Shown in pieces: positions 41,483 through 57,373 of a stretch of DNA of 57,373 nucleotides. The notes below the pieces were generated by a model. It had not been told where the DNA came from and searched no databases. It saw nothing but the letters and a program-made list of their open reading frames with translations. Source of the stretch: a virus. Its lineage: Duplodnaviria > Caudoviricetes. A program made the position numbers and the translations under genes. The stretch covers positions 1 to 57,373 of IMG/VR virus record IMGVR_UViG_3300031759_000022. One strand, given 5' to 3'. The first letter of the stretch is position 1. Every line of letters starts with the position of its first letter.

Positions 41483-41516
41483 TTTATTCTTTCAATTCGT
41501 TTTAAGAAGTATACAT

Positions 41517-41553: not shown

Positions 41554-41572
41554 AACGAATTTAAAAAAATAT

Positions 41573-42819: not shown

Positions 42820-43027
42820 TTTTTACTTTCCCTTCAAAATCAAAACAATACCATTTACCTACAATAGCTAATGCAGGAAGTAATTCTTTCCATGCTTCAA
42901 TGTCATCTTCATGCCATTTATCTATTTCCTTAACACTTTTAGAAACATTTACGTAACTGTCAATAATACTTTTACCAACCAACTCGTCCATAATGTCATC
43001 ATCAATTTCAATATTCATTTTCCGCAC
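42803..43027 (-). CDS. Hypothetical protein
   Basis: 74 aa (start may be the internal MNIEID). Confidence 0.55.
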   Translation of the reverse strand: MRKMNIEIDDDIMDELVGKSIIDSYVNVSKSVKEIDKWHEDDIEAWKELLPALAIVGKWYCFDFEGKVKNESKD

Positions 43028-43341: not shown

Positions 43342-43507
43342 GTTTGCCTCTTAGTTCAGTTTCAACTGCTAAAATTTCTTCCGGTGTATCGCACACCCAC
43401 AATGTTTGAACGTCTTTAAACATGGAAAGATCAATATCTTCCACACCTTGTATAGTATCAAATAGCGGGTAACCTTTTACTAAATGCTCAACAATAAATG
43501 TAGTCAT
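43322..43507 (-). CDS. Hypothetical protein
   Basis: 61 aa, overlap-coupled. Confidence 0.55.
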   Translation of the reverse strand: MTTFIVEHLVKGYPLFDTIQGVEDIDLSMFKDVQTLWVCDTPEEILAVETELRGKHARSSK

Positions 43508-43809
43508 AGCTTGAGTTCCTTTTTAATAAACGCAACACCGGCAGCAAAATGATACCGCCAATGCTTTTCTGTTAAACCGATATCATTATAACTTAAACCT
43601 TGTAAAAAAGCATCTAAAACTTTTTTTGATTTTTCTGGCATTTTTGTGCAAATTAAACGGCGTATATCCGCCACGTCTTCTACATCCCACGGTAGCCAAC
43701 CACCTCCCTCTAACATGCTTGATGAAATACCTTCTGATTCATCTTGCTCGATTACGTCCATTTCCTCGTCTGATAGGCGGGGAGCTACTGCTTGAATTTT
43801 TGATGTCAT
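43504..43809 (-). CDS. Stand-alone sigma70 region-4-like HTH protein (putative late activator / sigma4 subunit)
   Basis: MPEKSKKVLDAFLQGLSYNDIGLTEKHWRYHFAAGVAFIKKEL aligns by eye with LPxxxxxVxxxxxxxGLSYxEI...; position after the SNF2 helicase. Confidence 0.55.
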   Translation of the reverse strand: MTSKIQAVAPRLSDEEMDVIEQDESEGISSSMLEGGGWLPWDVEDVADIRRLICTKMPEKSKKVLDAFLQGLSYNDIGLTEKHWRYHFAAGVAFIKKELKL

Positions 43810-45140
43810 AGTTCTAATGATTCTAGGATTGCATCCTGTAAAGTTATTTTTCCTTCTAATACTGCTACTACTCTTTCATCTACACTATTGGATACAACTA
43901 GGTGGTGTATAATGACCGGCTTTTCTTGCCCTTGGCGATAAATGCGGGCGTTGGCTTGGATGTAGTTCTCTGAGCTCCACGGTAAGTCAAACCACACGGT
44001 TTGTGCTGTGTCTCCAACGTTGCACTGGAGATTAAGCCCGATGCCCCCTGATTGCGGGTGTGCGAGTAGCATACGAATCTCACCACGACGCCACGCCTCA
44101 ATGTTGTCATCGTCCAAGACCACGGCGTACGGGAAAGTGAGGCGAAGCCTTTGCAAGCTGTGCTTGAAGTGGTAGAAGACAAGCGTTGGGGAGGAGGACT
44201 CTTCCATGATCGACTCAAGATATTCCAGCTTAGAACGGTGTACCTCGTGTGTTTCGCCTTGTTCGTCATACACCGCGCCTGATGTGAACTGGAGGAGTTT
44301 GTTAGCCAACGCCGCTGCTGTTGGAGCTGTGATCCTTTCTTTCTTGATACTAACGACCATATCTTTTTTGAGTTGCTCATACTGGGTCCTTACGTTTTTA
44401 TCTATTTCGATTTTGTGATAAAGCAAAGTAAGCGGGGGAAGTTGTAGGTAATCCTCAGCTTTAAGAGAATAACAAATATCTGAAATTTTATCTTGAATAA
44501 CTTTAGATGCACCACTTTTTGGTTTCCATGTATAAACTTGTCTTGTTTGTCTATTAAATTGATCGGGTTGTAAATATTTGTCCCTGAACTTTGTTAGGCT
44601 TGTTTCTAAACGTGTTCCCAAATCTAATATACCGACCTGAGACCATAGATCAGATACTCCTTGAGGGGTAGGTGTGCCTGTTAAAATAATACGCCGCGAG
44701 AAGCCCTTTAAATGCTTTTTAAGTGCCTTAAATCGTTTGGTTGATGGATCCTTAAAACGGGATGACTCATCAATCACTAGGTTGCTGAACTGGCTCATCT
44801 GAGGCTGTTCCGTTAACCACACCACGTTTTCTAAGTTCACTAAGTAAATGTCCGCGGATTGGTTCAGGGCTTGCAGCCGCTGAGATGGCGATCCCAAAAT
44901 TTTCGAGATTTTTAAGGAGTTCAGATGTTCCCACTTCTTGGTCTCCTGCTCCCACACTGTCTCCGCTACCCTCTTGGGCGCGATGATTAGTGTCTTCCCT
45001 TGCATCTGCTCCGCAATGATGGTGAGTGTCGTTATCGTCTTCCCAAGTCCAGGGGGTAGAAACAGACCCAAGTTCAGCACCGACTGCGCCTTTAATATTA
45101 GTTCGTTTTGGTATTGGTGAAGCTGTGTTCGGTTTAGCAT
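43806..45140 (-). CDS. SNF2-family (SF2) helicase
   Basis: PGLGKT, IDESS, LTGTP, SGGIGLNLQ, QANARIYRQGQ. Confidence 0.9.
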   Translation of the reverse strand: MLNRTQLHQYQNELILKAQSVLNLGLFLPPGLGKTITTLTIIAEQMQGKTLIIAPKRVAETVWEQETKKWEHLNSLKISKILGSPSQRLQALNQSADIYLVNLENVVWLTEQPQMSQFSNLVIDESSRFKDPSTKRFKALKKHLKGFSRRIILTGTPTPQGVSDLWSQVGILDLGTRLETSLTKFRDKYLQPDQFNRQTRQVYTWKPKSGASKVIQDKISDICYSLKAEDYLQLPPLTLLYHKIEIDKNVRTQYEQLKKDMVVSIKKERITAPTAAALANKLLQFTSGAVYDEQGETHEVHRSKLEYLESIMEESSSPTLVFYHFKHSLQRLRLTFPYAVVLDDDNIEAWRRGEIRMLLAHPQSGGIGLNLQCNVGDTAQTVWFDLPWSSENYIQANARIYRQGQEKPVIIHHLVVSNSVDERVVAVLEGKITLQDAILESLEL

Positions 45141-45609
45141 TTAATACTTCTTTCCGTTTATCATGTAGCCAATCTGCTACTAAGTATAACTCTTTTTCCG
45201 TAGCATTATTTTTAATTGTATTTGCCCAATGGGAAATAAACACCACATTTTCTTTAATATAGCCTAATTCAGGAATAACTCTGTCTAATGATGCTGTATT
45301 TTTTTCGGCATTTCCAGAACCCTTTGTAGTACCTACGTATAATAAAGGGACTTTAAATACAGGGCAATTTTCCGTTGCTATTGATACAAGATAATCATAG
45401 TCTAAATCAAACTCCAACTTTTTATTTCGTGATCTTATTTTTGCGGACTGTAATGCTTGAGTTAAAAACCCGTGTTTGGTTGCTCGATATTGAATTTTAT
45501 GAGCCGCCATGCAAAACTTACAGTGAGATGTTAGCTTATCTTTACGTTTGGCATCTTTGTAAAATTCAGAATTTTTTTTATTAATATTACATTTTTTGCA
45601 TAGTTGCAT
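44770..45609 (-). CDS. HNH-like homing endonuclease with C-terminal extension overlapping the helicase
   Basis: CKKC...HCKFC, CPVF, SLDRVIPELGYIKENVVFISHWANTIKN. Confidence 0.75.
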   Translation of the reverse strand: MQLCKKCNINKKNSEFYKDAKRKDKLTSHCKFCMAAHKIQYRATKHGFLTQALQSAKIRSRNKKLEFDLDYDYLVSIATENCPVFKVPLLYVGTTKGSGNAEKNTASLDRVIPELGYIKENVVFISHWANTIKNNATEKELYLVADWLHDKRKEVLNAKPNTASPIPKRTNIKGAVGAELGSVSTPWTWEDDNDTHHHCGADAREDTNHRAQEGSGDSVGAGDQEVGTSELLKNLENFGIAISAAASPEPIRGHLLSELRKRGVVNGTASDEPVQQPSD

Positions 45610-45871
45610 TTATAAATTCCTCCACGTCTTCTTTAGACCTCAATACATGAACAGGAAATCCTTGTTCACCCAAATCGTCGAATACGAGCACTTGTCTTGG
45701 GCTCAATACTCCGGTTGCTGTTTTTAGTTCTACGAGGTACACTTTTTGGTTCAGGAACACTATCCGATCCGGCACTCCCGTTATTGAGCTCTGCCATTTG
45801 AAGGATAACCCCAAGGATTGCTTTATTAACTTGTTCAGGTGTTTTTCTATCTCTTTTTCTAGTACGCTCAC
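45587..45871 (-). CDS. VRR-NUC domain nuclease
   Basis: GTG start MSVLEKEIE; GVPDRIV...LVELK...LSPRQ. Confidence 0.85.
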   Translation of the reverse strand: MSVLEKEIEKHLNKLIKQSLGLSFKWQSSITGVPDRIVFLNQKVYLVELKTATGVLSPRQVLVFDDLGEQGFPVHVLRSKEDVEEFINATMQKM

Positions 45872-46295
45872 GGGTTTCGTCCTCTGTTGCATAAGCTGCA
45901 AATACTTGTTTAAACACATGCTCCCCTAAATAGGAACGAGACTCATCGCCAATATTTGTTTCACCAATATATTCAAAAATGTGAGTAGTTGTATGCGAGA
46001 CTTCATGGTATATAACACCCATTCGTTCCAACGCGTCTAACTTAGCCATTTCTTCGTAATTAAAAACAATAGCAAGCATAGCATGATGCGTACCTTCTTG
46101 CTGAATAATATGAGACTCCGCTAAACCAAGATCTAACGCGTTATGTTTAGTTGTGATACCAGAGTCTTTTACTGCATGTTGAAATGCTGAATCAGAAAAA
46201 CATATTTTAACTTTAATCCCAAAGTGCCCTGTATCAGCGACATAATATGGTTTACTGGTTAAAGGGGATGGTGGCAAGGATTTCTGCGTGGTCAT
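45666..46295 (-). CDS. HEXXH-containing hypothetical protein (possible metallopeptidase fold)
   Basis: VIYHEVSH...DE motif; 3' end overlaps VRR-NUC. Confidence 0.6.
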   Translation of the reverse strand: MTTQKSLPPSPLTSKPYYVADTGHFGIKVKICFSDSAFQHAVKDSGITTKHNALDLGLAESHIIQQEGTHHAMLAIVFNYEEMAKLDALERMGVIYHEVSHTTTHIFEYIGETNIGDESRSYLGEHVFKQVFAAYATEDETRERTRKRDRKTPEQVNKAILGVILQMAELNNGSAGSDSVPEPKSVPRRTKNSNRSIEPKTSARIRRFG

Positions 46296-46428
46296 TATCA
46301 GCCTCTATTTCAAAAGTTATACCGCTTTCTGGTTTTTTATTAAAGATAGTGTCCCAGTTTTTATCAAACTGTTCTTTATCTAAGGGCTGTATTAATGTGT
46401 CTCCCTTACCGCCGTCATGTACTGTCAT
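46252..46428 (-). CDS. Small hypothetical protein (GGKGD...FDKNWDTIF), 58 aa
   Basis: Hand-translated, ATGA-coupled. Confidence 0.55.
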   Translation of the reverse strand: MTVHDGGKGDTLIQPLDKEQFDKNWDTIFNKKPESGITFEIEADNDHAEILATIPFNQ

Positions 46429-46688
46429 TTCTTTAACCCTTTACGCAATTCGTGACTATGTAATTTATTGCCGGGGTTTTTAACTTCACCGGCTGCTTTT
46501 GCTATTTTAGCAGCTTTTTTACGATTTGCAATTTCTCCGTCGGAAAGTACAAATTCATGCTTTGCTCCCTTAGCTTCTTTACCCGCCTTTTTGATAATAT
46601 CATCATGGCTTTGTTTAATGGATGTAGCTTTAACTACCTTACCTGATTTTTCTACAATAACAGGTTTAACTACTCTTAATTTGTTCAT
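46425..46688 (-). CDS. Basic hypothetical protein
   Basis: 87 aa with AAGGA RBS. Confidence 0.6.
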   Translation of the reverse strand: MNKLRVVKPVIVEKSGKVVKATSIKQSHDDIIKKAGKEAKGAKHEFVLSDGEIANRKKAAKIAKAAGEVKNPGNKLHSHELRKGLKK

Positions 46689-46886
46689 GTTATTCCTTAT
46701 AGCATTGAGTGTAATATGATTAAAATAAAACCGATTTCAATGGCGAATCCGAATATCGCTGTGATATCCATTAGTTGTTCCTGTGGTATGCGTTGTTAGG
46801 GTTGGCCAGCATACTGGCAATTAGCTCGTCTGCATTCCAAAACCATTGCTGCGCCCGTAAGCCGTCTGCTTGGTAGATGGAGAAGC

Positions 46887-46983
46887 TCATAGCATCATCA
46901 CTGCTGATCTTCTGTTTAATAATTCAGCTTGCAATTCTTGTACCCATGCTTTAAAGTAAGTCAGCTAGTTCATTTGTGTTCAT
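46887..46983 (-). pseudogene. Frameshifted/truncated MNxNELAD-family cassette
   Basis: MNTNELADLL* shares its 5' DNA with the ORF starting at 47660; another frame continues KAWVQELQAELLNRR. Confidence 0.45.
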
Positions 46984-47105
46984 TTCTCGCCTTTGTATTC
47001 ATATAAAGTCACGCACTCAGTTTGGTCGCAAATTACTCTGCGGGTGTATGGGCTTGTAGTGCAAGCAACCAGAAAAATAAATAGTGGTAGTAGATACTTA
47101 ATCAT
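46980..47105 (-). CDS. Small lipoprotein (MIKYLLPLFIFLVAC..., 41 aa)
   Basis: Hand-translated; lipobox LVA-C; ATGA overlaps at both ends. Confidence 0.6.
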   Translation of the reverse strand: MIKYLLPLFIFLVACTTSPYTRRVICDQTECVTLYEYKGEK

Positions 47106-47302
47106 TTCTCTTGTGCCTTTCTTAGTATTGCTCTAGCAAAATCAACTTCATCTTTGCTTTCTTCCCATTCAGCCATTATTTCTTCATCTGTTAGGTCTGC
47201 TGGATGGTCGTAGAGTGGAATAGCGTTTAGTTCTTCCCCATCTATTTCGTTTAGCAAGTAAACCTCACCATCTACCATCCACGCTACTGGTTCATTGTTC
47301 AT
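47102..47302 (-). CDS. Cassette-family small protein (MNNEPVAW...LTDEEI...ARAILRKAQEK)
   Basis: Shares termini with 47893..48117 and 47657..47896. Confidence 0.7.
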   Translation of the reverse strand: MNNEPVAWMVDGEVYLLNEIDGEELNAIPLYDHPADLTDEEIMAEWEESKDEVDFARAILRKAQEK

Positions 47303-47396
47303 CTAATTAACCCTGTTATTAGTCCAACAGATATGACCAAAAAGCTAACGCCCAAACAAATTACACCTATTCCAAAACAGTAATCTACAAAATCAT

Positions 47397-47660
47397 TCAT
47401 TTTATATTCTCCGCAAATTCTAAAAATTCTTCTTTAGTCAATAGCCAAGTATGTCCGTTAACCAACTTATCTGACCACAAACGCATTACCCAGTAATTGT
47501 CAATAACAATTTCATAAAACGCTGGGTTGCTTTTCAACGCTTCTATTTCAGCTTGTTGCTGGCGTAGCATGAGTTGAGATTGATTATGTTTATCTTCATC
47601 GTAATCAACTTCGTTGTACATAAAGTCATGTAAGTAATCAGCTAGTTCATTTGCGTTCAT
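47397..47660 (-). CDS. Cassette-family small protein (MNANELAD...LRQQQAEIEALK)
   Basis: 87 aa, ATGA-coupled. Confidence 0.65.
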   Translation of the reverse strand: MNANELADYLHDFMYNEVDYDEDKHNQSQLMLRQQQAEIEALKSNPAFYEIVIDNYWVMRLWSDKLVNGHTWLLTKEEFLEFAENIK

Positions 47661-47896
47661 TTCTTTTGTGCCTTTCTTAGTATTGCTCTAGCAAAATCTA
47701 AATGCCTAAAGCATCCTCCAAACTGTTCCATCCCAGCGCCAAACTCATCTGCAAGACTGTCTATTTCTTCATCGGTTAAGTCTATATAAACTTTGTATGT
47801 ACGACTTAATTCATCTGCTTCTAATCCGCATTTTTGACATTGCACAGTCATCCTATCTGACCTTTTTTTCCATGATTCGTGTTTGCATGTGTTCAT
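47657..47896 (-). CDS. Cassette-family small protein with Zn-ribbon core
   Basis: CKH...CQKC; ends LTDEEI...FARAILRKAQKK. Confidence 0.7.
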   Translation of the reverse strand: MNTCKHESWKKRSDRMTVQCQKCGLEADELSRTYKVYIDLTDEEIDSLADEFGAGMEQFGGCFRHLDFARAILRKAQKK

Positions 47897-48117
47897 TTCT
47901 CCTGTGCCTTTCTTAGTATTGCTCTAATTACATTATCCAAACCAACAACTTTTTCACTTTGAGAAAAGTTAAACACATTTTTTATAGCCCATTCAAAGTC
48001 TGCTATTTCCTCATCTGTTAGTGTCTTTAATTGTGGCGAACAAGTGTGAATGGAATCGCCTGTAACTCTTTTGCCACAATCTAAACACGCAGTCCACGCT
48101 ACTGGTTCATTGTTCAT
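47893..48117 (-). CDS. Cassette-family small protein with CxxC..HxC core
   Basis: MNNEPVAW...CLDCG...IHTC...LTDEEI...RAILRKAQEK. Confidence 0.7.
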   Translation of the reverse strand: MNNEPVAWTACLDCGKRVTGDSIHTCSPQLKTLTDEEIADFEWAIKNVFNFSQSEKVVGLDNVIRAILRKAQEK

Positions 48118-48246
48118 TTTGTTTAACTCCTAACAATTCAAAAGGATTGAATTTAATTCTGTTATCTTTATATACCCTTGAAACTTCTACGCCATTTTCA
48201 ATAACAACAGTCATATCATCATAAATACAAGTAATTTTATAATTCA

Positions 48247-48474
48247 TTAGTTTTTGTCCTTTACTTGGTGCCATTTAACAAAATCTACTGCATCCCAAAA
48301 GCCGTTCTCGTACTCCTCAGAGTTGATGCCTGTCATGGTGATGTCTTGGTACCAAACAATCATCTTCTCTAGGTGGGTAAGTCGGTCCTGCATCTTCTTT
48401 AGCTCATCACACGGCACACCTACCACGTTGTTAGGTCTTTTAGCTGCGTCTATGCCAAATTGTTCTTTGCTCAT
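48247..48474 (-). CDS. Hypothetical protein
   Basis: 75 aa, overlap-coupled. Confidence 0.55.
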   Translation of the reverse strand: MSKEQFGIDAAKRPNNVVGVPCDELKKMQDRLTHLEKMIVWYQDITMTGINSEEYENGFWDAVDFVKWHQVKDKN

Positions 48475-48884
48475 TCTGCGTCCTCTATCACAATGCCGTT
48501 ATCACGGCGGTAAATTTCCTCATCAGCAAACACCTTGGCTATGTGCTCGGGTACGTGGGTCTGCGTCATGCGGATGTTGTGGATGTGCATGTTAGACAGC
48601 GAGCACACTGGGCGGTATTCCAGTGGTGATCTGCCGTCCTTGCCACGACAGCCCCACCAAAATGCTTTTCTAATTACCTCATGCGGGTCTATGTCATACA
48701 CACTGGCCTGTGTGTACGGCGCGTCATCGTGTATGTTGCAACGTTGGTAATCAAGGCCACCATCAATCATGTACTCCTTACCATTAGCGTCAACGTACGT
48801 CTTATAATCGTGCCGGTGAAAAGACTGCATCAATGTACCGTCTGGTGTGATGATGCGGTTGGCTAATAGTTTTGGTTCGGTCAT
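48471..48884 (-). CDS. Conserved-looking phage hypothetical protein
   Basis: TPDGT.MQS.HRHDY...YMIDGGLDY.R...WG.RGKDG. Confidence 0.7.
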   Translation of the reverse strand: MTEPKLLANRIITPDGTLMQSFHRHDYKTYVDANGKEYMIDGGLDYQRCNIHDDAPYTQASVYDIDPHEVIRKAFWWGCRGKDGRSPLEYRPVCSLSNMHIHNIRMTQTHVPEHIAKVFADEEIYRRDNGIVIEDAE

Positions 48885-49018
48885 TTTGTTTTCTCACAGT
48901 TGTATATGACGGTGCAAATATTGTTTTGACAAATAATTTCCTTGGTGCAAGTTTGAGTTTGCGCAAAGGCGGTGATTGGGCTAAATGCCAGTAAAAATAA
49001 CCAAATAATACACTCCAT
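48881..49018 (-). CDS. Small secreted Cys-rich peptide, 45 aa
   Basis: Hand-translated MECIIWLFLLAFSPITAFA-QTQTCTKEIICQNNICTVIYNCEKTK; GGAG RBS. Confidence 0.55.
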   Translation of the reverse strand: MECIIWLFLLAFSPITAFAQTQTCTKEIICQNNICTVIYNCEKTK

Positions 49019-49020
49019 AC

Positions 49021-49233
49021 TTATCTCCTAAATGGTGTGGCTGGTGCGCGTCTGCCGTACAACCGACGAACCTTTATGGCTGTAATTCTGCCAAAGGTAA
49101 TATTTCGCCAGCCTTGGTGCGCGCGTCTTGTTCGTTGTAGCTTAAAGCGTTTTTTCTTAAACTTAGGTATGTAACTACGCACACCTCTGCGCCGACCAAC
49201 ACCACCAAAAATGGTGGTGAAGTCGTTACGCAT
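49021..49233 (-). CDS. Very Arg-rich small protein
   Basis: Likely start MRNDFTTIFGG; fills the gap after the primase. Confidence 0.5.
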   Translation of the reverse strand: MRNDFTTIFGGVGRRRGVRSYIPKFKKKRFKLQRTRRAHQGWRNITFGRITAIKVRRLYGRRAPATPFRR

Positions 49234-49249
49234 TATTGTCTTTCTAAAG

Positions 49250-51580
49250 TTAAAACACTTCTTCATTAAATGATTCCACGCTCTCAACATACTTTTGAGC
49301 TTTGTCAGTTAATTTTACACCATGGTAAACCTGTATTCTACCACCGTTTGCCCTATCTTCGCCAGTTAAAATTCTATGCTCCTGTGTAGCGGCTAAGAAA
49401 CGGCGTTTAAACGCTAGTTCTGTACCTGGGGGTAAAGACTTATGTATAGCCCATTTTTTGTAGCAAGTGAACACATCGTCTTTAGATACCTTACCTGTAG
49501 GGTCAAACACAAGAGCGTCTTCAACAAATGAACCTATTGGATTGCCCAGTTCGGACATTAACTCTAATAACTGCTTACCCGATTCTGGTTGGATAAAGTG
49601 CCCACCACGGGCTAGTCGGCGTTTAAGTCCATCCATAGCCCAGTTAAAAATACCAGCTAACTCCTTATCTAATTTAACGGACAAGTCTGTATCTTCATTG
49701 TTATAAAATGAACGGGTCATTTTAAACACTACCATACGGCCCGTCAATGCGTTAGAGTTCTCAGTTAATTGAAGTACCTCGTTACTATAAACCACAATAC
49801 GGGTAGGAAGATAGCCGCTCCAAGCCTCTTTGTTCTTTCGATTGACTGTGACGGTATCGCCACCCACAATCCGCAAAAGCTGAGATACGACAGCACTCCT
49901 ATTACGTTCGGGAGCTCTTGCATCTGTGAAAGAAGCCAATAATTTACCCAGCCAAGGCTGTAAGCCAAAAGTATCACAAAGTTCCTCTAGTTGTGGTGCA
50001 ACGGTATTATGTTGTCCTAGTAACGATACCAGCACCTTGTTAATAGTCCCCTTACCTGATCGGCGAGGTCCGATAATATTAAAGAATTTTTGTTGCTTTG
50101 TTTCACCCGACAACACATATCCAAACATTTCTTGCAATGCTTGGACTGATTCAGGGTCATCCCCCCATACTGATTCTAAAAACCCCATCCATGATGGGCA
50201 TTGTGCAGTTGGGTTATATGTAAACGGCAATGAGTTTGGAGTAAAGAATCCCAATGAGTGCGGGATCATTACATAATCTTTTAGATGGAAGATTCCGTTT
50301 TTAAGGGAGATAAGGTCAGAAGCGTCGGGCTGGTTTGAAGCATATTGTTCCAACCAGATTGGCGGTTTCGTATTAGGATGGTTTGGCAAATGGCAGATGG
50401 ACTTAACTGCATCGAGTGCCGCAGATACGGATGCTGGAGAAGGGTTAAACATTTCAAGTGCCCCCTTTCTTCCCGTCTTCTTGCATTTATCCAAAAAAGC
50501 GTAAAGTTTAGCTCTGATTGTTGCTTCTTCGATAATTTCATAATGAGTACCTACATAAATAAAGAAGTCCTGCGCGTAGTGAACTAATGTATGTCCTTCT
50601 TCGCTTGAGAACAGATTGTCTAAAAACGTACGGGCATGATTCATTGTTCCTGCATCAAGAATAATATCGCCCCGCTTTAACGCCGCTTGTCTGGTTTGGA
50701 TGTTTACTTTGAAGATAAGCGAGCGCAACGTGGATGTAGAACCACTCTCCCGTTTAAACGTCTTCCACTTTGCATGGCATGAGTTATCGCCCGTGGCTTG
50801 GTAGGCTGGTGTTGCTCCATCATTGTAAGACCATGTATTCCAGAGTTCACAGGCTTCCGGGTCACCTCTAAACTGGTGATGGAGAGCATACCCTACACTC
50901 ATCCAGTCTGCGTAGCCACAATCAGGGTTTAAATGCGCTAGGATGTCTGTTTCAACACGGGCTAGGTCGTACTCAGGGACAGGGGGTTTGTAGTCTGCAA
51001 AGTCATCCCCAGTAACATGAACCACCCTATCAGGAATAACGGAGGATAAGTCTTGTTCCTGTGCGGGGACAGAACCGCTTATAAGGTGTCCTGTTACCGT
51101 GAAGTATCTTCCATGGGGGTATGCCTCAAATCCAATCGAATGGTCTACATGGGCTGTTTTAAGGCTTCCACGGGTAAATATCTTTACACCTGTTCCCGAT
51201 GGGCTGATTTCCATGTAGCCGTTGACGGATTCTGCAATATGCTGCATTGCAGCATTTGTGAAACTCGACAATTCGGCATCATAGCAGTCATCCAAATCAA
51301 TGCCCACTAGGTTATCATCTTCGGAGAAGACAAATCCAACACCACTAAATCGGTCAGGGTTGTTTTGATAGGCGGCTTGGACTGTTAGGAAGTCTGCCCA
51401 TGTTGTTGGGTTAGTGGATGATGCAGATTGCCCTGATGCTTGAATTGGTAGTTTTGACCAGCGTCTATTACCTTCTTCGCCCACTTCTGTATGACGCCAT
51501 AGAACCCATCTAGGGATTCTTTTAATCTCCATGGGTATGTTCTCAAAGATTACGGGCAGTGCTTCTGGTTTATTGCTCAT
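49250..51580 (-). CDS. Primase-helicase (AEP/PrimPol N-domain, PriCT-2, D5-like SF3 helicase)
   Basis: RWVLW, GIDLDDC, EISPSGTG, RYFTVTG; YADWMSVGYALH; GPRRSGKGT Walker A. Confidence 0.9.
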   Translation of the reverse strand: MSNKPEALPVIFENIPMEIKRIPRWVLWRHTEVGEEGNRRWSKLPIQASGQSASSTNPTTWADFLTVQAAYQNNPDRFSGVGFVFSEDDNLVGIDLDDCYDAELSSFTNAAMQHIAESVNGYMEISPSGTGVKIFTRGSLKTAHVDHSIGFEAYPHGRYFTVTGHLISGSVPAQEQDLSSVIPDRVVHVTGDDFADYKPPVPEYDLARVETDILAHLNPDCGYADWMSVGYALHHQFRGDPEACELWNTWSYNDGATPAYQATGDNSCHAKWKTFKRESGSTSTLRSLIFKVNIQTRQAALKRGDIILDAGTMNHARTFLDNLFSSEEGHTLVHYAQDFFIYVGTHYEIIEEATIRAKLYAFLDKCKKTGRKGALEMFNPSPASVSAALDAVKSICHLPNHPNTKPPIWLEQYASNQPDASDLISLKNGIFHLKDYVMIPHSLGFFTPNSLPFTYNPTAQCPSWMGFLESVWGDDPESVQALQEMFGYVLSGETKQQKFFNIIGPRRSGKGTINKVLVSLLGQHNTVAPQLEELCDTFGLQPWLGKLLASFTDARAPERNRSAVVSQLLRIVGGDTVTVNRKNKEAWSGYLPTRIVVYSNEVLQLTENSNALTGRMVVFKMTRSFYNNEDTDLSVKLDKELAGIFNWAMDGLKRRLARGGHFIQPESGKQLLELMSELGNPIGSFVEDALVFDPTGKVSKDDVFTCYKKWAIHKSLPPGTELAFKRRFLAATQEHRILTGEDRANGGRIQVYHGVKLTDKAQKYVESVESFNEEVF

Positions 51581-51685
51581 TAAGATTCCTTTCTTATTTC
51601 CGCTATTGTATAGCGAAACAGCCGGAAATACTAAATAACTTTTAGTTATATTGAAATTCCTTATGATACCAAAAAGTTATGGATT

Positions 51686-51843
51686 GACAGGGTAGCGGGG
51701 GTCTATCTCACTTTATTCTTTTTTAAAAAAAAAAAAAAAAAAAAAATATAATAAGAAAAGGTAAATATACCCTGTATTTCACGACTACCCTGTCTATTTT
51801 TGTGGATAACCTGTGGATAACCTGTGGATAACCTGTGGATAAC
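51686..51843. other. Putative replication origin: inverted repeat + A22 tract + four DnaA boxes
   Basis: GACAGGGTAG 51686-51695 / CTACCCTGTC 51785-51794 flank a T/A tract; TGTGGATAA at 51801, 51812, 51823, 51834; directly upstream of the primase-helicase. Confidence 0.7.
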
Positions 51844-51861
51844 TTTTATTGCACCATTCTT

Positions 51862-51891
51862 GGGCGTTTTGCGATAAAATTTTGCATTAGT
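51862..51891 (+). promoter_or_regulatory. Late-motif copy oriented antisense to early genes, beside the origin
   Basis: GGGCG 51862-51866, TGCATTAGT 51883-51891, 16-nt spacer. Confidence 0.6.
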
Positions 51892-52108
51892 AGTTACCTA
51901 GAATAATATCTGCTACTTCCTTGGTTAAAGGGGTGCAACTATTAGATTCCACGGTAAACACCTCGTATTTATTAAAAGACTCAATGTTTTTTGTTTTTAC
52001 TGGGTCTTTAAGGGTGGTTGTTCTTATTACAAGGTTTAGCCCATCGTTATAGACTGTTACTACCTCCCCTAACATTTCACCCCACATAACCCAATCCCCG
52101 GACTTCAT
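51887..52108 (-). CDS. Small SH3/KOW-like protein, TKEVADI family
   Basis: MKSGDWV...GEV; ends PLTKEVADIILG. Confidence 0.7.
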   Translation of the reverse strand: MKSGDWVMWGEMLGEVVTVYNDGLNLVIRTTTLKDPVKTKNIESFNKYEVFTVESNSCTPLTKEVADIILGNY

Positions 52109-52302
52109 AGGTCTATTTCAAAACCTAGTCTTTTAACCATCTTATAAGACCATTTTCGGAAAGATTCTCTGTTTTCGCTGGTTTGTTCATCATTTGAATC
52201 CCATTCAGATTGGATTTCAAATTCACCTTCAAGATTGTGAAATTCTAACCTTAATAGGTTTCCGTCTTTATCGTAAACATCCGTTGGAATAACCTTGGTC
52301 AT
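52105..52302 (-). CDS. Hypothetical protein
   Basis: 65 aa, overlap-coupled. Confidence 0.6.
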   Translation of the reverse strand: MTKVIPTDVYDKDGNLLRLEFHNLEGEFEIQSEWDSNDEQTSENRESFRKWSYKMVKRLGFEIDL

Positions 52303-52616
52303 TATATTTCCTTAACTTTGCTTGGTTTTTCTTCCCAGTTATCTGGTGTGCCGTAATCCCCCCGTGATGACCTCATGCGTTCCTCCTCACGATACCTAGG
52401 TTCTACACCTAACCACATAGCAAAAGCCTCTGCATACTCCACATACTCGTCGTTAATTACATATAGCGGGTGGTTTAGCCCCGCAACATCAACTGTATGG
52501 GAAATGGTGCAAGACCTTACCCAAGTCTTATTGCGTTTAAACAGCCTGTCCCTAGCTATAATAAAACGGTTATAGGCTCTGGTCTGTTCGGGGTTTAGTT
52601 CAATCATCTTGCTCAT
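52302..52616 (-). CDS. Hypothetical protein
   Basis: 104 aa, overlap-coupled. Confidence 0.6.
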   Translation of the reverse strand: MSKMIELNPEQTRAYNRFIIARDRLFKRNKTWVRSCTISHTVDVAGLNHPLYVINDEYVEYAEAFAMWLGVEPRYREEERMRSSRGDYGTPDNWEEKPSKVKEI

Positions 52617-53175
52617 CAGTTAATCTTTCTGTATTTAAGTGGTCTATGGAGATAGGCTCTCTAACCATAAAGGACTGCAACTGCGCCAATTTGCGTGTTG
52701 TAATCCCCATTATTTTTGCCAGTTCTTCGGGTTTAGGACTTCTGCCTAGGATTTGAGATAAGGCTCTTTCGTTGTAGTTCATCTTCTTTAATGCCTCTAC
52801 TACATTCATAGGCAATCGAATGATGCTGGAAAGGTTGTCAAGTTCTCGCCTTACACCCTTCTCAATAAAGGACTTTGCGTAGGTCGCAAACTTAGCATTG
52901 TTTTTTGGTTTCCATTTGCGCCCTGCTATTAGTAATTGCTCATTACCAATGCCAATGATATCTTCAACAGGCATTTTGCCATGCTTCCAATAACTCATTT
53001 TACGCACTACATAAACGACAAAACGCAGATTGTGGGTAATAAGGCGGTCTAATGCCTCGTTATCCCCCTGTGCTATTTTGTAAGCTAGTTCATGCTCTTG
53101 CTCGGTTGTTAGTGGCTCAATACCGTACAATGATTGTAGGTAGTCACTTAGTATGTCGTTGTCAATCATAGGCAC
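52600..53175 (-). CDS. Sigma70-family factor containing regions 1.2, 2 and 3 but lacking region 4
   Basis: DYLQSL...LTTEQEHELA, LITHNLRFVV, DIIGIGN..LL.A, KFATYA, IIRLP, LGRSP..EELA, PISID, then stop. Confidence 0.88.
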   Translation of the reverse strand: MPMIDNDILSDYLQSLYGIEPLTTEQEHELAYKIAQGDNEALDRLITHNLRFVVYVVRKMSYWKHGKMPVEDIIGIGNEQLLIAGRKWKPKNNAKFATYAKSFIEKGVRRELDNLSSIIRLPMNVVEALKKMNYNERALSQILGRSPKPEELAKIMGITTRKLAQLQSFMVREPISIDHLNTERLTDEQDD

Positions 53176-53196
53176 TCACATTTTGTATGAGTGCCT

Positions 53197-53205
53197 ATTA
53201 TATCA
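53197..53205 (-). promoter_or_regulatory. Extended -10 promoter (TGaTATAAT) for the sigma gene
   Basis: Consensus TGnTATAAT about 22-30 nt upstream of the start. Confidence 0.6.
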
Positions 53206-53364
53206 CATACCCTTTCTTTTTGCACCATAATGGTGCTTGTAACACATAACTAAATAGGTAGCCAGTAAAGCCCACCATGAATTAACTACTACCCACCACA
53301 AACCCTTGATTAAACCTAATACTGATATTGTTACTAGATAAAATAATGCCACTATGTATTCCAT
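53203..53364 (-). CDS. Small membrane protein, 53 aa
   Basis: Hand-translated MEYIVALFYLVTISVLG...; two hydrophobic segments. Confidence 0.5.
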   Translation of the reverse strand: MEYIVALFYLVTISVLGLIKGLWWVVVNSWWALLATYLVMCYKHHYGAKRKGM

Positions 53365-53489
53365 TAAAACAATGCCTTTCCTAGTTGTTTAAACACTTCC
53401 GAAAAGGTGAGGCTTCGTACCCTCTTTGGTTTTGGTGCTGGCTTCCATACCACCTCACCAAAATCATCATACTTAATCTTCGGGTTCAT
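53364..53489 (-). CDS. Small hypothetical protein, 41 aa (MNPKIKYDDFGEVVW...LGKALF)
   Basis: Hand-translated; TAATG coupling. Confidence 0.5.
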   Translation of the reverse strand: MNPKIKYDDFGEVVWKPAPKPKRVRSLTFSEVFKQLGKALF

Positions 53490-53622
53490 AAAAGTATTCT
53501 AAACTTCCATCTTCGCCCAACTCCTCCAATGTCTTTAACTTCTGCATAAAGCATTTCTGTGTTTCGTAGTCCTCATCAAAGTTATCGTGGTTATCATCAG
53601 TAAAATAATCTCTGTTAATCAT
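53473..53622 (-). CDS. Small acidic protein (likely start MINRDYF)
   Basis: GAGGAG RBS supplied by the upstream cassette end; ATGA overlap. Confidence 0.5.
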   Translation of the reverse strand: MINRDYFTDDNHDNFDEDYETQKCFMQKLKTLEELGEDGSLEYFYEPED

Positions 53623-53828
53623 CTGCTTCTCCTCATAATATCGGCTACTTCTTTGGTTATAAAATGACAATCTTCATACAGGGCAATTCTTTCACTTCTA
53701 GTTTGAAAATCAAGGTGCGGGTTGTCCTTATAGTATTCAGTCGGCACATATAGATATATCAAGTTCGCTATTTGCCTAGAAACCATACAAGGGTATCCCT
53801 TATACTCCACAAAATCACCGTACTTCAT
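53619..53828 (-). CDS. Small SH3/KOW-like protein, TKEVADI family
   Basis: MKYGDFVEY; ends ITKEVADIMRRSR. Confidence 0.7.
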   Translation of the reverse strand: MKYGDFVEYKGYPCMVSRQIANLIYLYVPTEYYKDNPHLDFQTRSERIALYEDCHFITKEVADIMRRSR

Positions 53829-53830
53829 GT

Positions 53831-54037
53831 TTAAACACTCCTCATAATGTCTGCTACTTCTTTGGTTATGGGGGTTACTTGATCTTGGTTATATACACTC
53901 TCTCCATAATTAACGGGGCTGTAATCTTCTTTACAATGCTTCACCCATATTGCCCCACCTCCTGTATCCCAAGTAACCTTGCCTATATGGGTCTTACCAT
54001 CAAACCCTTCCGCAAATACAAATTGCCCACGAATCAT
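53831..54037 (-). CDS. Small SH3/KOW-like protein, TKEVADI family
   Basis: MIRGQFV...IGKV; ends PITKEVADIMRSV. Confidence 0.7.
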   Translation of the reverse strand: MIRGQFVFAEGFDGKTHIGKVTWDTGGGAIWVKHCKEDYSPVNYGESVYNQDQVTPITKEVADIMRSV

Positions 54038-54039
54038 GT

Positions 54040-54231
54040 TTAAACACTCCTCATAATGTCTGCTACTTCTTTGGTTATGGGGAATATCTCATTGGTAGGT
54101 TCAATTATTGCGTATTCTTTATCCTCGGCATTTAACACCCATATCTGACAATACATTCCCCCGTACTGTCTAATTTGACCAACACCTGTGCTATACATAA
54201 CCCAATCTCTAGGGTTCATGCTATCACCCAA
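54040..54231 (-). CDS. Small SH3/KOW-like protein, TKEVADI family (likely start MNPRDWV at 54219)
   Basis: DWVMY..GVGQI; ends PITKEVADIMRSV. Confidence 0.7.
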   Translation of the reverse strand: MGDSMNPRDWVMYSTGVGQIRQYGGMYCQIWVLNAEDKEYAIIEPTNEIFPITKEVADIMRSV

Positions 54232-55031
54232 TATGAAACTGAATCTTGCCTCAAGCCAATGTCCTCTACAAATTCCTTTTCGTTTGAGATATCTAATACA
54301 AACATTTTACCTCTAATATCTTCAGGAAGCTCGTTTAAACTTGCTAATATTTGCGGCTCTTTGCTACCTTTTTTGATATACTCTACTGAATTCGGTTTGA
54401 CCCATACAAAAGAATAATCAGGGTCATAGCGGGAATACTTGTCAATCTCGGCTTTATTTTCGGCTAAGTAGTTCATGGCACTAGCAAATTTTTGGGTCTT
54501 AGGTGCATAACCAATGCTATGCAAGTGAATCATATCCTCATAGGCTAAATCAAAAGCTGAATCTGTTTGCCTATTTACTTGCCAACTCCATTTATTTCTT
54601 ATATTGGCAACTGCGCCTTCAAAATTACTTTTCACTTCATCAATGACTTGAAATATGGTTAATGGGTGTATGGTTTTCTTTGCCGTTGCTAGAATGTTTT
54701 TGGCATGAATGGAGGATTTAAGCTGACCCTCTCCTCGCCCATAATATCTTCGGCTTGATTCCACATTCCTATTAACAATCCAAAATTTGCCATCAAATTT
54801 TTGTCTGCCAATTACTGAAACACGCTTATTAAGGCTATCATCAAAGTAAACATCCAATGAAGTAGTAACCCCTACCCATTCACATTCAATTGGAATATTG
54901 TATCGTTCTACTTCACCCTGGTTAAACACTACATTCGGAATGGCTTTTTGTATATTGTTTGCCAGTTCTACAAGTAAAGAATCCACATGGGGGATATCTT
55001 GAAACGGTATATAAATTGCTTCTTCTTTCAT
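54216..55031 (-). CDS. Early hypothetical protein
   Basis: 271 aa, AAGGAG RBS. Confidence 0.7.
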   Translation of the reverse strand: MKEEAIYIPFQDIPHVDSLLVELANNIQKAIPNVVFNQGEVERYNIPIECEWVGVTTSLDVYFDDSLNKRVSVIGRQKFDGKFWIVNRNVESSRRYYGRGEGQLKSSIHAKNILATAKKTIHPLTIFQVIDEVKSNFEGAVANIRNKWSWQVNRQTDSAFDLAYEDMIHLHSIGYAPKTQKFASAMNYLAENKAEIDKYSRYDPDYSFVWVKPNSVEYIKKGSKEPQILASLNELPEDIRGKMFVLDISNEKEFVEDIGLRQDSVSYWVIA

Positions 55032-55046
55032 TTTAATACTCCTTAA

Positions 55047-56030
55047 TTAAGCAAACCAAGATTTATAACGGTCTTTGCACAACTGACCTAGAGGCACTTC
55101 AACTGCCTTTAATGGCTTAACGATCTTATATAAATCTCCATGCACATATCTACTAAGCCTCTCTTTATGGAATACATGGGTGTATTTTGTATCGTAACCC
55201 CCACCTGTTTCTTTCATAAAATGGTCGTATGTTGATACTTTTATTTTAAATTTATAGTTTTCGGCAAGAGTAAACCAATGCTCAGGAGTATTGTCATCGA
55301 CTTGTTTAAACACATCGGCTACTTTAATACCTTTATCTTTTGATACTAATTTAAGGGGGCTTTCCCATGCACCACAATATTTTGGCTCTACCATATCCAC
55401 CATAACTTTAAGGTAATCTAAAAAGGGTTTAGTCTTAGCCCTCCATTCTTTAGTTAATTCTCTATCTAAGGTGTGGATTACTTCTCTACGCACTACCAAT
55501 GGCATCCAATCCTTCGTGCCCTGTTTGCGTGTGAAAGAGATATCCCCTTTTTCTATGGTGTAATACTGACCGTTTAAACTCACATACTTACAAGTGCTAT
55601 GGTTTACCATTTCAAAACCGTACGGCAAATTGAAGTCATAAAAGTAAAAAACAGAATTACAACTGAAACCCCTCGGATATAGACCGTGTGGATCAGATTG
55701 TGACCATATAGTTCTAGGTGTGTGGACTGTCAATGTTTCCATGCCATCGTTTAAACAGTATGTTATGGCTCTGCTATGAAGCCTTGACTTATTTATCTCC
55801 GACCAACGGTACGCGTCATAAGTAACATAATATTCATTGTCACTCACCTTTACAATTCGTTCTTGTGACCTATTCCTCTCACCCAAGGGGCGAATATCAA
55901 GATGACCCCTTTTCTTTCCAGTAATCGGTTTTACTTCCTCGTATCGGTTTGCTACTCTTAGAAAATCAAATCTACCACCGTTATCTCTTTGCACATCATA
56001 AGGTGTGCGAGTATTCCGTCCAAAACCCAT
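55047..56030 (-). CDS. Early hypothetical protein (likely start MGFGRN)
   Basis: Long ORF; GAGGAG RBS precedes the ATG at 56030. Confidence 0.7.
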   Translation of the reverse strand: MGFGRNTRTPYDVQRDNGGRFDFLRVANRYEEVKPITGKKRGHLDIRPLGERNRSQERIVKVSDNEYYVTYDAYRWSEINKSRLHSRAITYCLNDGMETLTVHTPRTIWSQSDPHGLYPRGFSCNSVFYFYDFNLPYGFEMVNHSTCKYVSLNGQYYTIEKGDISFTRKQGTKDWMPLVVRREVIHTLDRELTKEWRAKTKPFLDYLKVMVDMVEPKYCGAWESPLKLVSKDKGIKVADVFKQVDDNTPEHWFTLAENYKFKIKVSTYDHFMKETGGGYDTKYTHVFHKERLSRYVHGDLYKIVKPLKAVEVPLGQLCKDRYKSWFA

Positions 56031-56031
56031 T

Positions 56032-57201
56032 TTAATTCTCCTCAATATGAATTGTTGCACCAATAGGTGCGGTTGTTTGCTTGTTGTCTTGTATTACCCA
56101 CAATACGGGGCAATTCCAACTCCCTCCCCAATCATTGCCTACATACCCATCGGTTAAAACAATGGCACATACTGGCTCTATCTTGTGCTTGTCCATGTAT
56201 TTTGTAATACAGGATGGGCTTGTACCTCCGCCACCCTTCGGCTTGGTAGATGATCGCATTTTATCGGCTTCGTTTAAACCATATACTTCATGCCCCGCTA
56301 CTGCGCTATCCCAATACAATAAATCTACCTGTTCGGGATTTACATTTTCCATAATGCTACTAACTTCTGACAAAAATCGGTTTAATATTGCGCCTTGAAT
56401 ACTGCCTGATGCATCAATAGCCAAAACAACACGACCCATCGTTTCACTAAATTGTGATGGCATATAAATGTCATGTTGTAACCACCTTCTGTTGGGTCTA
56501 GCCCATGTTGAATCATCTTTGCCTTTACATACTGCTGAAACAAATTCTCGTAGTGCCTCTTTCCAATTTACTTTGGCACTCATCAACTCATCAAATGATC
56601 TGTTTAAACTGCCCCCTACCTTACCCGCTAAGATTGCGCCTTGACGAATGGCCTGGTCTATTTCCTTACCAAGTTCTTCCTTCTCCTCGTCACTCATCTC
56701 CTCTGCGCCTTCCCAATCATGCTCATCAAACCCATCCCCTCCCCCTCCCCCGCCACCTTCCCCGCCTTCATCGGGTAATAGGTTGAATACATCGGCAGAG
56801 TTTAACCCCTTGTATTTAATATCATACAAACCCCCCTTTGGTAGTGTGATAAAGCCGTTTGAAAATTCGCCTTCATCCACTACTTCTATGTTAATAACAT
56901 AGTCACAAGCCTTATTAGCCTTGTCGTGGTTGATTTTGGATAGATGCTTCCATGTTAATAAATGGCGGTACATTTTATGCTTTGCTTCGTGAATAATTAC
57001 ACCACGCAAATCGGTATCGTTTAAACTCTCCACAAATTTGCGCCCGTAATATACATCCCGACCATTAGTACAAGCCGTTGGCAAATCCTCTTTGACTTTA
57101 CATTCTCCGACCATCAATACCCCCGAATATGCAACAAACTGCGGGGACTTCATAAGATCAATATGCGCTCTTTCAATTCGTTGCTCTGCGGTTAGTGCCA
57201 T
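56032..57201 (-). CDS. Metallopeptidase-vWA protein (DUF2201-like)
   Basis: PTACTNG, IIHEAKH (HEXXH), N.ACD..IN, AIDASGSI (MIDAS), GGGGT, VLTDGY. Confidence 0.88.
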   Translation of the reverse strand: MALTAEQRIERAHIDLMKSPQFVAYSGVLMVGECKVKEDLPTACTNGRDVYYGRKFVESLNDTDLRGVIIHEAKHKMYRHLLTWKHLSKINHDKANKACDYVINIEVVDEGEFSNGFITLPKGGLYDIKYKGLNSADVFNLLPDEGGEGGGGGGGDGFDEHDWEGAEEMSDEEKEELGKEIDQAIRQGAILAGKVGGSLNRSFDELMSAKVNWKEALREFVSAVCKGKDDSTWARPNRRWLQHDIYMPSQFSETMGRVVLAIDASGSIQGAILNRFLSEVSSIMENVNPEQVDLLYWDSAVAGHEVYGLNEADKMRSSTKPKGGGGTSPSCITKYMDKHKIEPVCAIVLTDGYVGNDWGGSWNCPVLWVIQDNKQTTAPIGATIHIEEN

Positions 57202-57373
57202 TACAATGCCCTCACTTGTATTTTGTCGTTTTCCTTGACCACTTCCGCCTTACCTTCGGCTAGTAGTTCAAGGGCTAGGTGAAACATAAATAACTTTTGC
57301 ATGGATGTTGATAGCAAGTGTTTAAACACTACTGCCAATACCGTTGCAACTATCGCCCATACTAATAAAAAAA

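Follow-up and report, generated by a model that had tools for sequence, protein, structure and literature searches.

An exact 8-bp palindrome tiles a restriction-site-purged gene block in a clade of uncultured phages

The stretch of DNA analysed here, hereafter the window, is the whole viral-contig record IMGVR_UViG_3300031759_000022 (57,373 bases, linear, estimated 89% complete), whose sequence is present in lake-water metagenomes (contigs of public runs). Its final part, and the corresponding gene block of related phages, is tiled with exact copies of the 8-bp palindrome GTTTAAAC, which we take to be the PmeI site, while other short palindromes have been purged from the same block. The favoured reading, to which we assign a probability of roughly one half, is that these copies would together offer docking sites, laid out as an array, to a symmetric DNA-binding protein or enzyme on the first-exposed, T5-like pre-early DNA of the phage.

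Seventeen copies of GTTTAAAC occur in the window on counting both strands: 12 within 52535-57327, five within 31608-50752 and none before 31608. All 17 positions named in a preliminary description of this DNA proved exact, no further copy was found on either strand, and the enrichment claimed there was reproduced, with 12 copies packed into 4.8 kb and 100 dinucleotide shuffles of the window giving 2.25 ± 1.36 copies (maximum 8, none equal to 17). For 52001-57373, where 12 copies are observed, the codon-shuffle and Markov nulls proposed in that description left the enrichment standing: synonymous-codon shuffling within the open reading frame (ORF) calls gave 3.12 ± 1.23 copies (maximum 9, n = 500), codon-order shuffling 1.23 ± 0.48 (maximum 3, n = 500) and Markov models of orders 1-3 between 0.16 and 0.50. 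Markov orders 5-6 come near the observed count because nearly all TTTAAA and GTTTAA hexamers of the region belong to the full 8-mer (12 of 13 and 12 of 14, respectively); the octamer is therefore the real unit. By reading frame, six of the 12 clustered sites encode xLN (SLN, CLN, GLN), four encode xFK (VFK, LFK) and two supply a stop codon, which bears out the frames VFK, SLN, CLN and LFK reported before. The clustered sites, listed without strand, are as follows.

52535-52542: within the gene of a 104-residue protein, frame LFKR
53387-53394: within a doubtful 41-residue ORF, frame VFKQ
53829-53836: gene junction, stop of the 68-residue gene followed by the ATG of the 69-residue gene (GAGGAGTGTTTAAACATG)
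54038-54045: gene junction, stop of the 63-residue gene and start of the 68-residue gene, with the same leader of ~38 nucleotides as at 53829
54333-54340: within the gene of a 271-residue protein, frame SLNE
55304-55311: within the gene of a 338-residue protein, frame VFKQ
55572-55579: within the 338-residue protein gene, frame SLNG
55749-55756: within the 338-residue protein gene, frame CLND
56272-56279: within the DUF2201 protein gene, frame GLNE, where relatives lacking the motif have GQGD or GMGD
56602-56609: within the DUF2201 protein gene, frame SLNR
57019-57026: within the DUF2201 protein gene, frame SLND, a position common to 16 of 23 clade members
57320-57327: within a small ORF open at its 5' end, frame VFKH

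Outside the block the word occurs at chance density, and the five outlying copies lie as follows.

31608-31615: within a 610-residue plus-strand gene
39382-39389: within the gene of an Enc34-type single-stranded DNA-binding protein
45908-45915: within a 209-residue gene
49405-49412: near the 3' end of the primase gene, relatives having a site at a matching distance as judged from locus coordinates, not from an alignment
50752-50759: within the primase gene

At both 53829 and 54038 the TAA of the word is the stop codon of a small gene and the next ATG follows directly. The two adjacent genes that begin there, of 69 and 68 residues, have an identical leader and 5' end of ~38 nucleotides (53829-53875 and 54038-54084); this shared leader starts with the palindrome, and contigs of the public runs break at the duplication.

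The enrichment recurs in the equivalent region of relatives, the second check that the preliminary description had put forward. Among 80 loci retrieved through the DUF2201 protein, 22 carry 15-40 copies of GTTTAAAC and the remaining 58 carry 0-2. Some of the 22 are near-identical to one another, so the pooled statistics were restricted to the window plus 12 non-redundant loci, giving 13 blocks. Whole records of the clade hold 25-44 copies, compared with 0-3 for the reversed word, and in one 66-kb record (G001) 22 of the 25 copies fall within 11.2 kb, at a density 36-fold higher inside than outside. In the 22 relatives the block spans 9-12 kb, its genes are co-directional and the copies fill it. 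Its starting point is the non-coding stretch between it and the terminase arm, which is transcribed divergently; a SprT-like gene, numerous small ORFs, an AAA_5 ATPase gene and the genes of the DUF2201, 338-residue and 271-residue proteins follow, and the block thins out at a sigma-factor gene. The sigma factor, the pair of small genes downstream of it and the primase occur in the GTTTAAAC clade only, whereas the cassette of ATPase, DUF2201, 338-residue and 271-residue genes is common to relatives without the word as well.

The window holds only the distal 5-6 kb of this block; in relatives a further 4-6 kb lies upstream. Contigs from all four runs examined extend past 57373, two of them by ~2 kb, so the motif cluster is truncated by an assembly break, and the window end is not a genome end. 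The relevant features of the window, all on the minus strand, are given below in ascending order.

49250-51580, minus strand: D5/P4-type primase-helicase (family scans), the first gene beyond the block; the purge of palindromes stops ~600 bp into its 5' part
50970-57373, minus strand: partial early (pre-early-like) block, dense in the motif and purged of palindromes, with all genes on the minus strand; it continues past the window
51581-51886, minus strand: non-coding boundary element of 306 bp that separates the block from the primase-helicase gene and lies directly upstream of the latter
52302-52616, minus strand: clade-specific 104-residue protein, downstream of the sigma factor, no fold match
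52600-53175, minus strand: sigma-70-like factor of 191 residues with regions 1.2, 2 and 3, clade-specific, near the distal end of the block
54216-55031, minus strand: 271-residue protein, no family, kept with the DUF2201 cassette
55047-56063, minus strand: 338-residue protein, no family, kept with the DUF2201 cassette, including in relatives without the motif
56032-57201, minus strand: DUF2201 metallopeptidase/VWA-like protein of 389 residues (family scans); in relatives its partner AAA_5 ATPase lies past the point at which the window ends

Selection on the DNA, not on protein, had been proposed in the preliminary description, and it is supported by the use of all frames and stop codons, by residue changes, by symmetric flanks and by the enrichment of the exact word only. 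When the 586 sites of the window and the 22 loci were set against the ORF calls, 176 and 171 lay in the two open frames of plus-strand genes, 105 and 3 served as stop codons, 92 were intergenic and 39 fell in opposite-strand ORFs, so that ~60% are intragenic. Codon alignments of four shared genes place SLN in the clade opposite TID or TLD in the relatives, and GLN[ED] opposite GQGD or GMGD; from these residue differences it follows that proteins were altered to create sites. Different subclades have sites at different alignment columns, and orthologous sites are common to at most 19 of 23 sequences, with turnover, a pattern in which sites would be gained and lost while their density is maintained. 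Exactness is close to absolute. Across 114.7 kb of the 13 blocks the exact word was counted 325 times (28.3 per 10 kb, compared with 1.9 outside), whereas all 24 one-mismatch variants together number 71 (6.2 per 10 kb, compared with 7.6 outside), some of them being depleted within the blocks. The flanks are constrained as well: for the two frames, a purine occupies position -5 in 93% and 81% of sites, and a pyrimidine position +12 in 80% and 74%. This symmetry, present in both frames, suggests a footprint of ~18 bp on duplex DNA with two-fold symmetry. Spacing is rather even, with a median of 320 bp over 319 intervals, 8.8% of intervals below 150 bp (33% for an exponential distribution) and a coefficient of variation of 0.43-0.72. 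No helical phasing of the sites was detected, the best of 176 periods giving R = 0.148 at 7.1 bp.

The block that gained this palindrome has lost nearly all others of restriction type. Over the 13 blocks (114.2 kb), observed and expected counts are 3 and 311 for GGCC, 3 and 107 for ACGT, 4 and 156 for CCGG, 10 and 157 for CGCG, 28 and 249 for GTAC, and 71 and 236 for GCGC; outside the blocks the same words have observed/expected ratios of 0.57-1.0 (0.57-0.94 for the first five of them, 0.62-0.94 for GGCC, ACGT and CCGG). Longer words are affected too, with observed/expected counts on both strands of 0/67 for ACATGT, 0/48 for CGATCG, 0/43 for CTATAG, 0/73 for GGCACC, 2/95 for CAATTG, 4/144 for CCATGG and 1/156 for CACTG. 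The purge is present in all 13 loci, where GGCC, CCGG, ACGT, CGCG and GTAC together occur 0-2.3 times per kb inside the block and 4.9-12.2 times per kb outside. The window shows the weakest case (2.3 against 10.8 per kb; 11 sites in 4786 bp against 568 in 52588 bp): the five 4-bp palindromes fall from ~11 to ~2 per kb at ~50970 and stay low to the end, with the border ~600 bp inside the primase gene. In G001 the purge spans ~21.0-31.0 kb. Its borders are sharp and coincide with those of the motif block, and palindrome and purge coincide strongly in the GTTTAAAC clade.

The borders themselves are marked by repeats. Within the boundary element of the window, 51801-51843 is made up of four 11-bp repeats in tandem, every one of which includes a perfect DnaA box TTATCCACA; a long run of T with an AT-rich tract comes next, and the element has further repeats as well. 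By analogy, 51581-51886 resembles a replication origin or the injection stop signal of T5. At this position relatives have iterons that differ between lineages, on either side of an AT-rich tract, the perfect DnaA boxes being peculiar to the window. In one relative (L016) an element of ~220 bp, consisting of iterons, an AT-rich tract and iterons, occurs twice, once at either block end, the two copies being 75-83% identical and separated by 11.69 kb; the same repeats were seen by eye at both block ends in L006 and L018. The non-coding region ahead of the block (L016:4170-4460, L018:4780-5100, L006:6220-6560) carries GGTGCGGTGCAACA(T)-type arrays around a central GTTTAAAC, together with a ATTTCACAATGTGAAAT-type palindrome that recurs ahead of the primase gene. 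These arrays and this palindrome may be packaging, end or operator sites.

More distant relatives (DUF2201 identity 37-55%) have other exact palindromes in the same region. One is CTAACAWTGTTAG, whose core TAACAWTGTTA is present in 10-24 copies in ten examined loci, mostly intragenic; over 13 examined loci the core occurs 155 times exactly, 19 times with one mismatch and 89 times with two. Further clade-specific iterated palindromes are CCTAACAATTGTTAGG, TTCTAACGTTAGAA and TGTTAGTCCATGGACTAACA. The palindrome-bearing loci of these other clades are L045, L048, L055-L057, L059, L060, L063 and L070 (together with L039, L072 and L038), and their copies, too, are mostly intragenic. The palindromes of the sister clades are 13-20 bp long, one clade having an exact 13-bp palindrome. 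Phage N4, which shares the ATPase/DUF2201 pair, has no iterated palindrome. A repeat of another kind was seen at L062:14864-15657 (also in L064 and L069), where 19 copies at a spacing of 36-37 bp, with the words AACGAGTC, GTATAACA and AGAGAACC, form a tandem array.

Taken as a mechanism, the favoured reading would run as follows. GTTTAAAC would be a word that is recognised on double-stranded DNA in its exact form only, has two-fold symmetry and is under positive selection, set at ~1 per 320 bp across the ~9-12 kb from the non-coding region of the terminase arm to the phage sigma-factor gene. Its candidate reader would be a symmetric dimeric DNA-binding protein or enzyme, probably phage-encoded, that acts on the block as a unit. 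The block would correspond to the first-step-transfer (pre-early) DNA of T5, being the part of the genome that the host meets first and without protection; the array would mark it to be protected, to be spared by a phage- or host-directed nuclease, or to be silenced later. We infer the protein binding, the first entry and the function of the array; that the block is first-exposed and unprotected follows, by inference, from a purge confined to it and from its origin-like repeat border, as in T5-like phages. The preliminary description had spoken of binding sites on the first-entering DNA. Selection on the DNA and a purge restricted to the block speak for that proposal, the latter indirectly, by way of T5; its implied basis, a cluster at a genome end, was not borne out, the window end being an assembly break. 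A bolder form of the idea, which we offer as speculation and consider rather unlikely, is that the palindrome could serve as a cis-acting 'self' code on first-step-transfer DNA, by which a phage reader, either co-injected or made first, would spare, hold or later switch off the marked DNA. Such DNA would be the only phage DNA in the cell while host DNA and defences are dismantled, and each phage clade would have evolved its own word and reader. If true, this would settle, for phages of the T5 type, how pre-early DNA is spared when the phage itself attacks host DNA, and would define a new class of regional DNA marking in viruses.

Several observations weigh against the docking-array reading, most of them concerning its reader. 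Pfam and PHROGs scans of the block proteins returned nothing DNA-binding, and no DNA methyltransferase or restriction-type nuclease was recognised among the scanned window proteins or the scanned block proteins of relatives. Atlas look-alikes provided only weak DUF932/DUF3871 leads, at 0.90, for the 338-residue protein and none for the 271-residue protein. AlphaFold2 models of the clade-conserved 104- and 82-residue proteins (predicted local distance difference test scores 71 and 85) had no Foldseek match at E ≤ 0.001. A ribbon-helix-helix protein (Pfam RHH_9, 27.2 bits) is encoded in only four of the 22 clade loci. Near-absolute exactness of this kind is commoner among the sites of restriction/modification-type enzymes than among those of transcription factors. 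In the TAACAWTGTTA clade the purge is mild (GGCC ratio 0.37 inside, 0.57 outside), so the iterated palindrome and the purge are separable traits. The label 'early' derives from gene order and site avoidance, and genes were called with a simple greedy ORF script. The 'direct terminal repeat' of G001 proved to be 64 bp of a tail-fibre tandem repeat, and the label 'complete, DTR' (direct terminal repeat) is therefore uninformative on physical ends.

With regard to candidate readers, the RHH_9 gene lies just upstream of the AAA ATPase in three distinct phages (L016:7734-7922, L012:7491-7763, L009:7507-7710); its occurrence in four of 22 loci led us to reject it as the general reader. PHROGs named no homologue of the T5 pre-early genes A1 and A2 among 30 block or flanking proteins, a set that covered part of the small ORFs.

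Among the alternatives, the main rival, in view of the all-or-none specificity of the word, is that the word is the target of a site-specific enzyme of phage or host: an endonuclease or nickase that would cut up or nick the early block after use, or a methyltransferase. Self-shut-off and release of the first-entered DNA are variants, as is methylation of the kind proposed for cyanobacterial iterated palindromes. We judge this reading unlikely, for all that the exact 8-mer alone is enriched, that the distant clade behaves alike (155 exact against 19 one-mismatch copies) and that rare-cutting type II enzymes recognise sites of this format, a contiguous palindrome of 8 bp. HIP1 is likewise described as an exact 8-bp palindrome under selection (PMC5861425), and a restriction-like pre-early function has been proposed for T5 (Davison, bioRxiv 10.1101/866236). 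Against it, neither the window nor the scanned block proteins yielded a nuclease or DNA methyltransferase family of this kind, and the exact 13-bp palindrome of a sister clade exceeds typical type II sites. A lower chance still attaches to a host factor that would read the word, either as a Chi-like, cis-acting attenuator of a host nuclease on entering linear DNA or as high-affinity sites recruiting or titrating an abundant host DNA-binding protein. Such a factor would be consistent with the enrichment of the exact word, with its even spacing, which hints at a 'range of action', and with its confinement to apparently unprotected DNA, as would the use of different words by clades of different G+C and presumably different hosts, and scans of the block proteins found no phage-encoded reader. 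Known Chi sequences are asymmetric and orientation-dependent, whereas the word and its flanks are two-fold symmetric and the sister clades have palindromes of 13-20 bp; moreover, TAACAWTGTTA is found across phages with 43-57% G+C, and a phage-borne reader therefore fits better.

The remaining alternatives are improbable to different degrees. In T4-type phages promoter/stem-loop cassettes provide a comparison for the idea that the word, as part of a gene-junction cassette of hairpin, word, ribosome-binding site and ATG, is a recombination linker for shuffling small early genes. About one third of the sites do lie at junctions (108 stops and 92 intergenic, n = 586), a repeated cassette of ~45 bp surrounds many of the intergenic copies, with a GC-rich hairpin before the word and a ribosome-binding site after it, and homology ends near 54.7% of junction sites compared with 41.1% of junctions without a site. 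However, ~60% of the sites are intragenic, where homology breakpoints accompany 8 of 175 (4.6%) compared with 7.7% of random intragenic positions, residues of conserved proteins were changed to make sites, and junctions look like the cheapest place for one. With breakpoints not enriched at intragenic sites and only slightly at junctions, we rejected this quite improbable explanation. A signal acting in RNA has poorer prospects. UUUAAAC is a classical slippery heptamer, the block genes are transcribed one way so that every site is in mRNA, and some sites fall between ribosome-binding site and ATG; a slippery site, a ribonuclease site or a translational-coupling spacer could thus be imagined. 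None of these would account for strict palindromy here and in every sister clade, for symmetric purine/pyrimidine flanks in two frames or for sites in all three frames, and the 8-mer is unable to form a hairpin. That base composition, codon usage or the loss of other palindromes could have produced the enrichment as a side effect has practically no probability left. The block is somewhat AT-richer and palindromes containing G or C have been removed from it; nevertheless, codon-preserving shuffles yield 1.2-3.1 copies against 12 observed, one-mismatch neighbours are not enriched, residues were changed to create sites, and phage N4 has the same gene cassette without such a word. The codon-shuffle nulls, the residue changes and the enrichment of the exact word only refute it. 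Very doubtful, finally, and rejected for the reasons given here, is the notion that GTTTAAAC is a promoter element of the phage sigma factor, in which no match to region 4 was found over its 191 residues. Sigma factors lacking region 4, such as T4 gp55, read a short -10-like word; the clade-specific sigma gene closes the block, and two relatives have one copy within the spacer of a sigma-70-like promoter ahead of the primase gene. But the word is palindromic, mostly intragenic, present once per 320 bp and situated upstream of the sigma gene itself, and it is a different conserved motif, TTGCATTAGTnnnTATA, not GTTTAAAC, that precedes the middle and late operons. The window contains six exact and three two-mismatch copies of TTGCATTAGTnnnTATA against 1.07 expected; the exact copies lie outside the block, oriented with the genes.

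288-304, 7891-7907, 20203-20219 and 26913-26929, plus strand: exact copies of TTGCATTAGTnnnTATA
41510-41526 and 42075-42091, minus strand: exact copies of TTGCATTAGTnnnTATA

A two-mismatch copy at 51882-51898 sits at the block border on the strand opposite to the genes, and G001 has nine copies, none inside the block. TTGCATTAGTnnnTATA often follows a hairpin and T run and stands ahead of portal, structural and some replication operons; it is likely the promoter for the region-4-less sigma factor of the phage. Two clade-specific small genes (104 and 65 residues) lie after the sigma gene, and their products might complete the factor.

Several known systems share parts of this pattern. HIP1 of cyanobacteria has been linked to a companion DNA methyltransferase; here none was found in the scanned window proteins or the block proteins of relatives, and a host enzyme is possible. 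HIP1 (GCGATCGC) is an exact 8-bp palindrome of cyanobacterial chromosomes that is selected and has no known reader (Xu, Lawrence and Durand 2018, PMC5861425). Like GTTTAAAC, it is described there as strongly over-represented (tens- to hundreds-fold) and as lying both within and between reading frames; it differs in being genome-wide in a cellular chromosome, whereas the present word is restricted to a ~10-kb phage block and varies by clade. The window contains no copy of GCGATCGC. Stoperators are sites of 13-14 bp, oriented, mostly intergenic and spread across the whole genome. In Cluster A mycobacteriophages they are reported to be asymmetric and read by a monomeric immunity repressor (PMC9283540). 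The likeness, on that account, lies in tens of copies of one site dispersed through phage transcription units and acting on whole operons; here, in contrast, the site is an 8-bp palindrome with symmetric flanks, ~60% intragenic and limited to the early block, and the scans found no repressor. DNA uptake sequences and Chi are likewise exact short words at high and rather even density, selected at the DNA level at an amino-acid cost, but they are asymmetric, genome-wide and read by cellular proteins, whereas GTTTAAAC is palindromic and local to a phage early block. With PmeI-type sites the word presumably shares its very sequence, and all-or-none specificity is typical of type II enzymes; phages normally avoid the sites of host enzymes, however, the block avoids nearly all others, and no cognate enzyme gene was found.

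The closest parallel is the T5 region, according to the descriptions consulted. T5-like phages are stated to be restricted only via sites in the first-step-transfer region (PMC10644984, for BF23; Davison 2020, bioRxiv 10.1101/866236), and the injection stop signal of T5 is placed in a non-coding region rich in repeats and palindromes, with DnaA boxes (Davison 2020, bioRxiv 10.1101/866236). Both systems thus have a ~10-kb block of small early genes in which alone restriction sites are lacking or decisive, and a non-coding, origin-like border with repeats, inverted repeats and DnaA boxes (DnaA boxes in the window, other iterons in the relatives); how that DNA survives early nucleases is presented as an open question for T5. 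The two show no sequence relationship, and the border element here is duplicated at both block ends. A long terminal repeat and two-step entry are T5 traits, whereas the present block is known from assembled contigs alone. The comparison with T5 is by description only, and the passages describing its region mention no iterated palindrome. None of HIP1, the stoperators and the T5 region joins a clade-specific exact palindrome with confinement to a restriction-purged early block. No published description of this phenomenon was found in a search that covered the word, the sister word and iterated or over-represented palindromes in phages, but not supplementary files.

Loss of palindromes is the expectation for a phage genome, and this block takes it to an extreme, yet it has gained one exact 8-bp palindrome at the price of residue changes in conserved proteins. 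Purge and costly palindrome together point to a strong region-specific function of the DNA. A purged domain with a clade-specific iterated palindrome could provide a sequence-only signature of pre-early or first-exposed DNA in uncultured phages, and the word, its 18-bp symmetric footprint and the few clade-conserved early proteins offer a handle on how entering DNA may be protected, held or silenced.

The rest of the window is organized in two arms. Its first bases fall inside the 3' end of the gene for the terminase large subunit, and the portal gene (336-3221) comes next; structural genes occupy the plus strand as far as 34973, and replication and early genes the minus strand from 34974 to the end. 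The minus-strand arm encodes a family A DNA polymerase, a class II ribonucleotide reductase, the Enc34-type single-stranded DNA-binding protein, a DUF2800 nuclease, an SNF2 helicase and the D5/P4-type primase, and its final 5.5 kb the DUF2201 protein, the 338- and 271-residue proteins, several small ORFs and the sigma-70-like factor. Megablast of the region against cultured phages gave no match, and the nearest cultured phages by protein reach only ~30% identity, in the primase and DUF2201 proteins. A search of bacterial and archaeal genome contigs found no relative, and no tRNA genes were found in the window. In relatives the terminase large subunit is split over two adjacent ORFs (L006:4514-5506 and L006:3078-4520, both minus strand), the upstream one with a weak LAGLIDADG match (E 0.003, below the curated cut-off) that may reflect an intein or a homing-endonuclease insertion.

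Three further features of the window were noted. A DUF2815 RNA motif (Rfam RF03084, 70.8 bits) at 39823-39881 on the minus strand lies upstream of the gene of the Enc34/DUF2815 single-stranded DNA-binding protein; it is the sole Rfam match, and an unrelated one. At 29180-29302 the hexamer GGTACA is repeated 21 times in tandem within the gene of a 998-residue virion protein; a comparable repeat gives rise to the spurious 64-bp direct terminal repeat of G001. In the structural arm, 13521-16605 (plus strand) encodes a 2OG-Fe(II) oxygenase-like protein, a glycosyltransferase fused to a class I methyltransferase domain and a second glycosyltransferase, which could modify the virion or the host surface.

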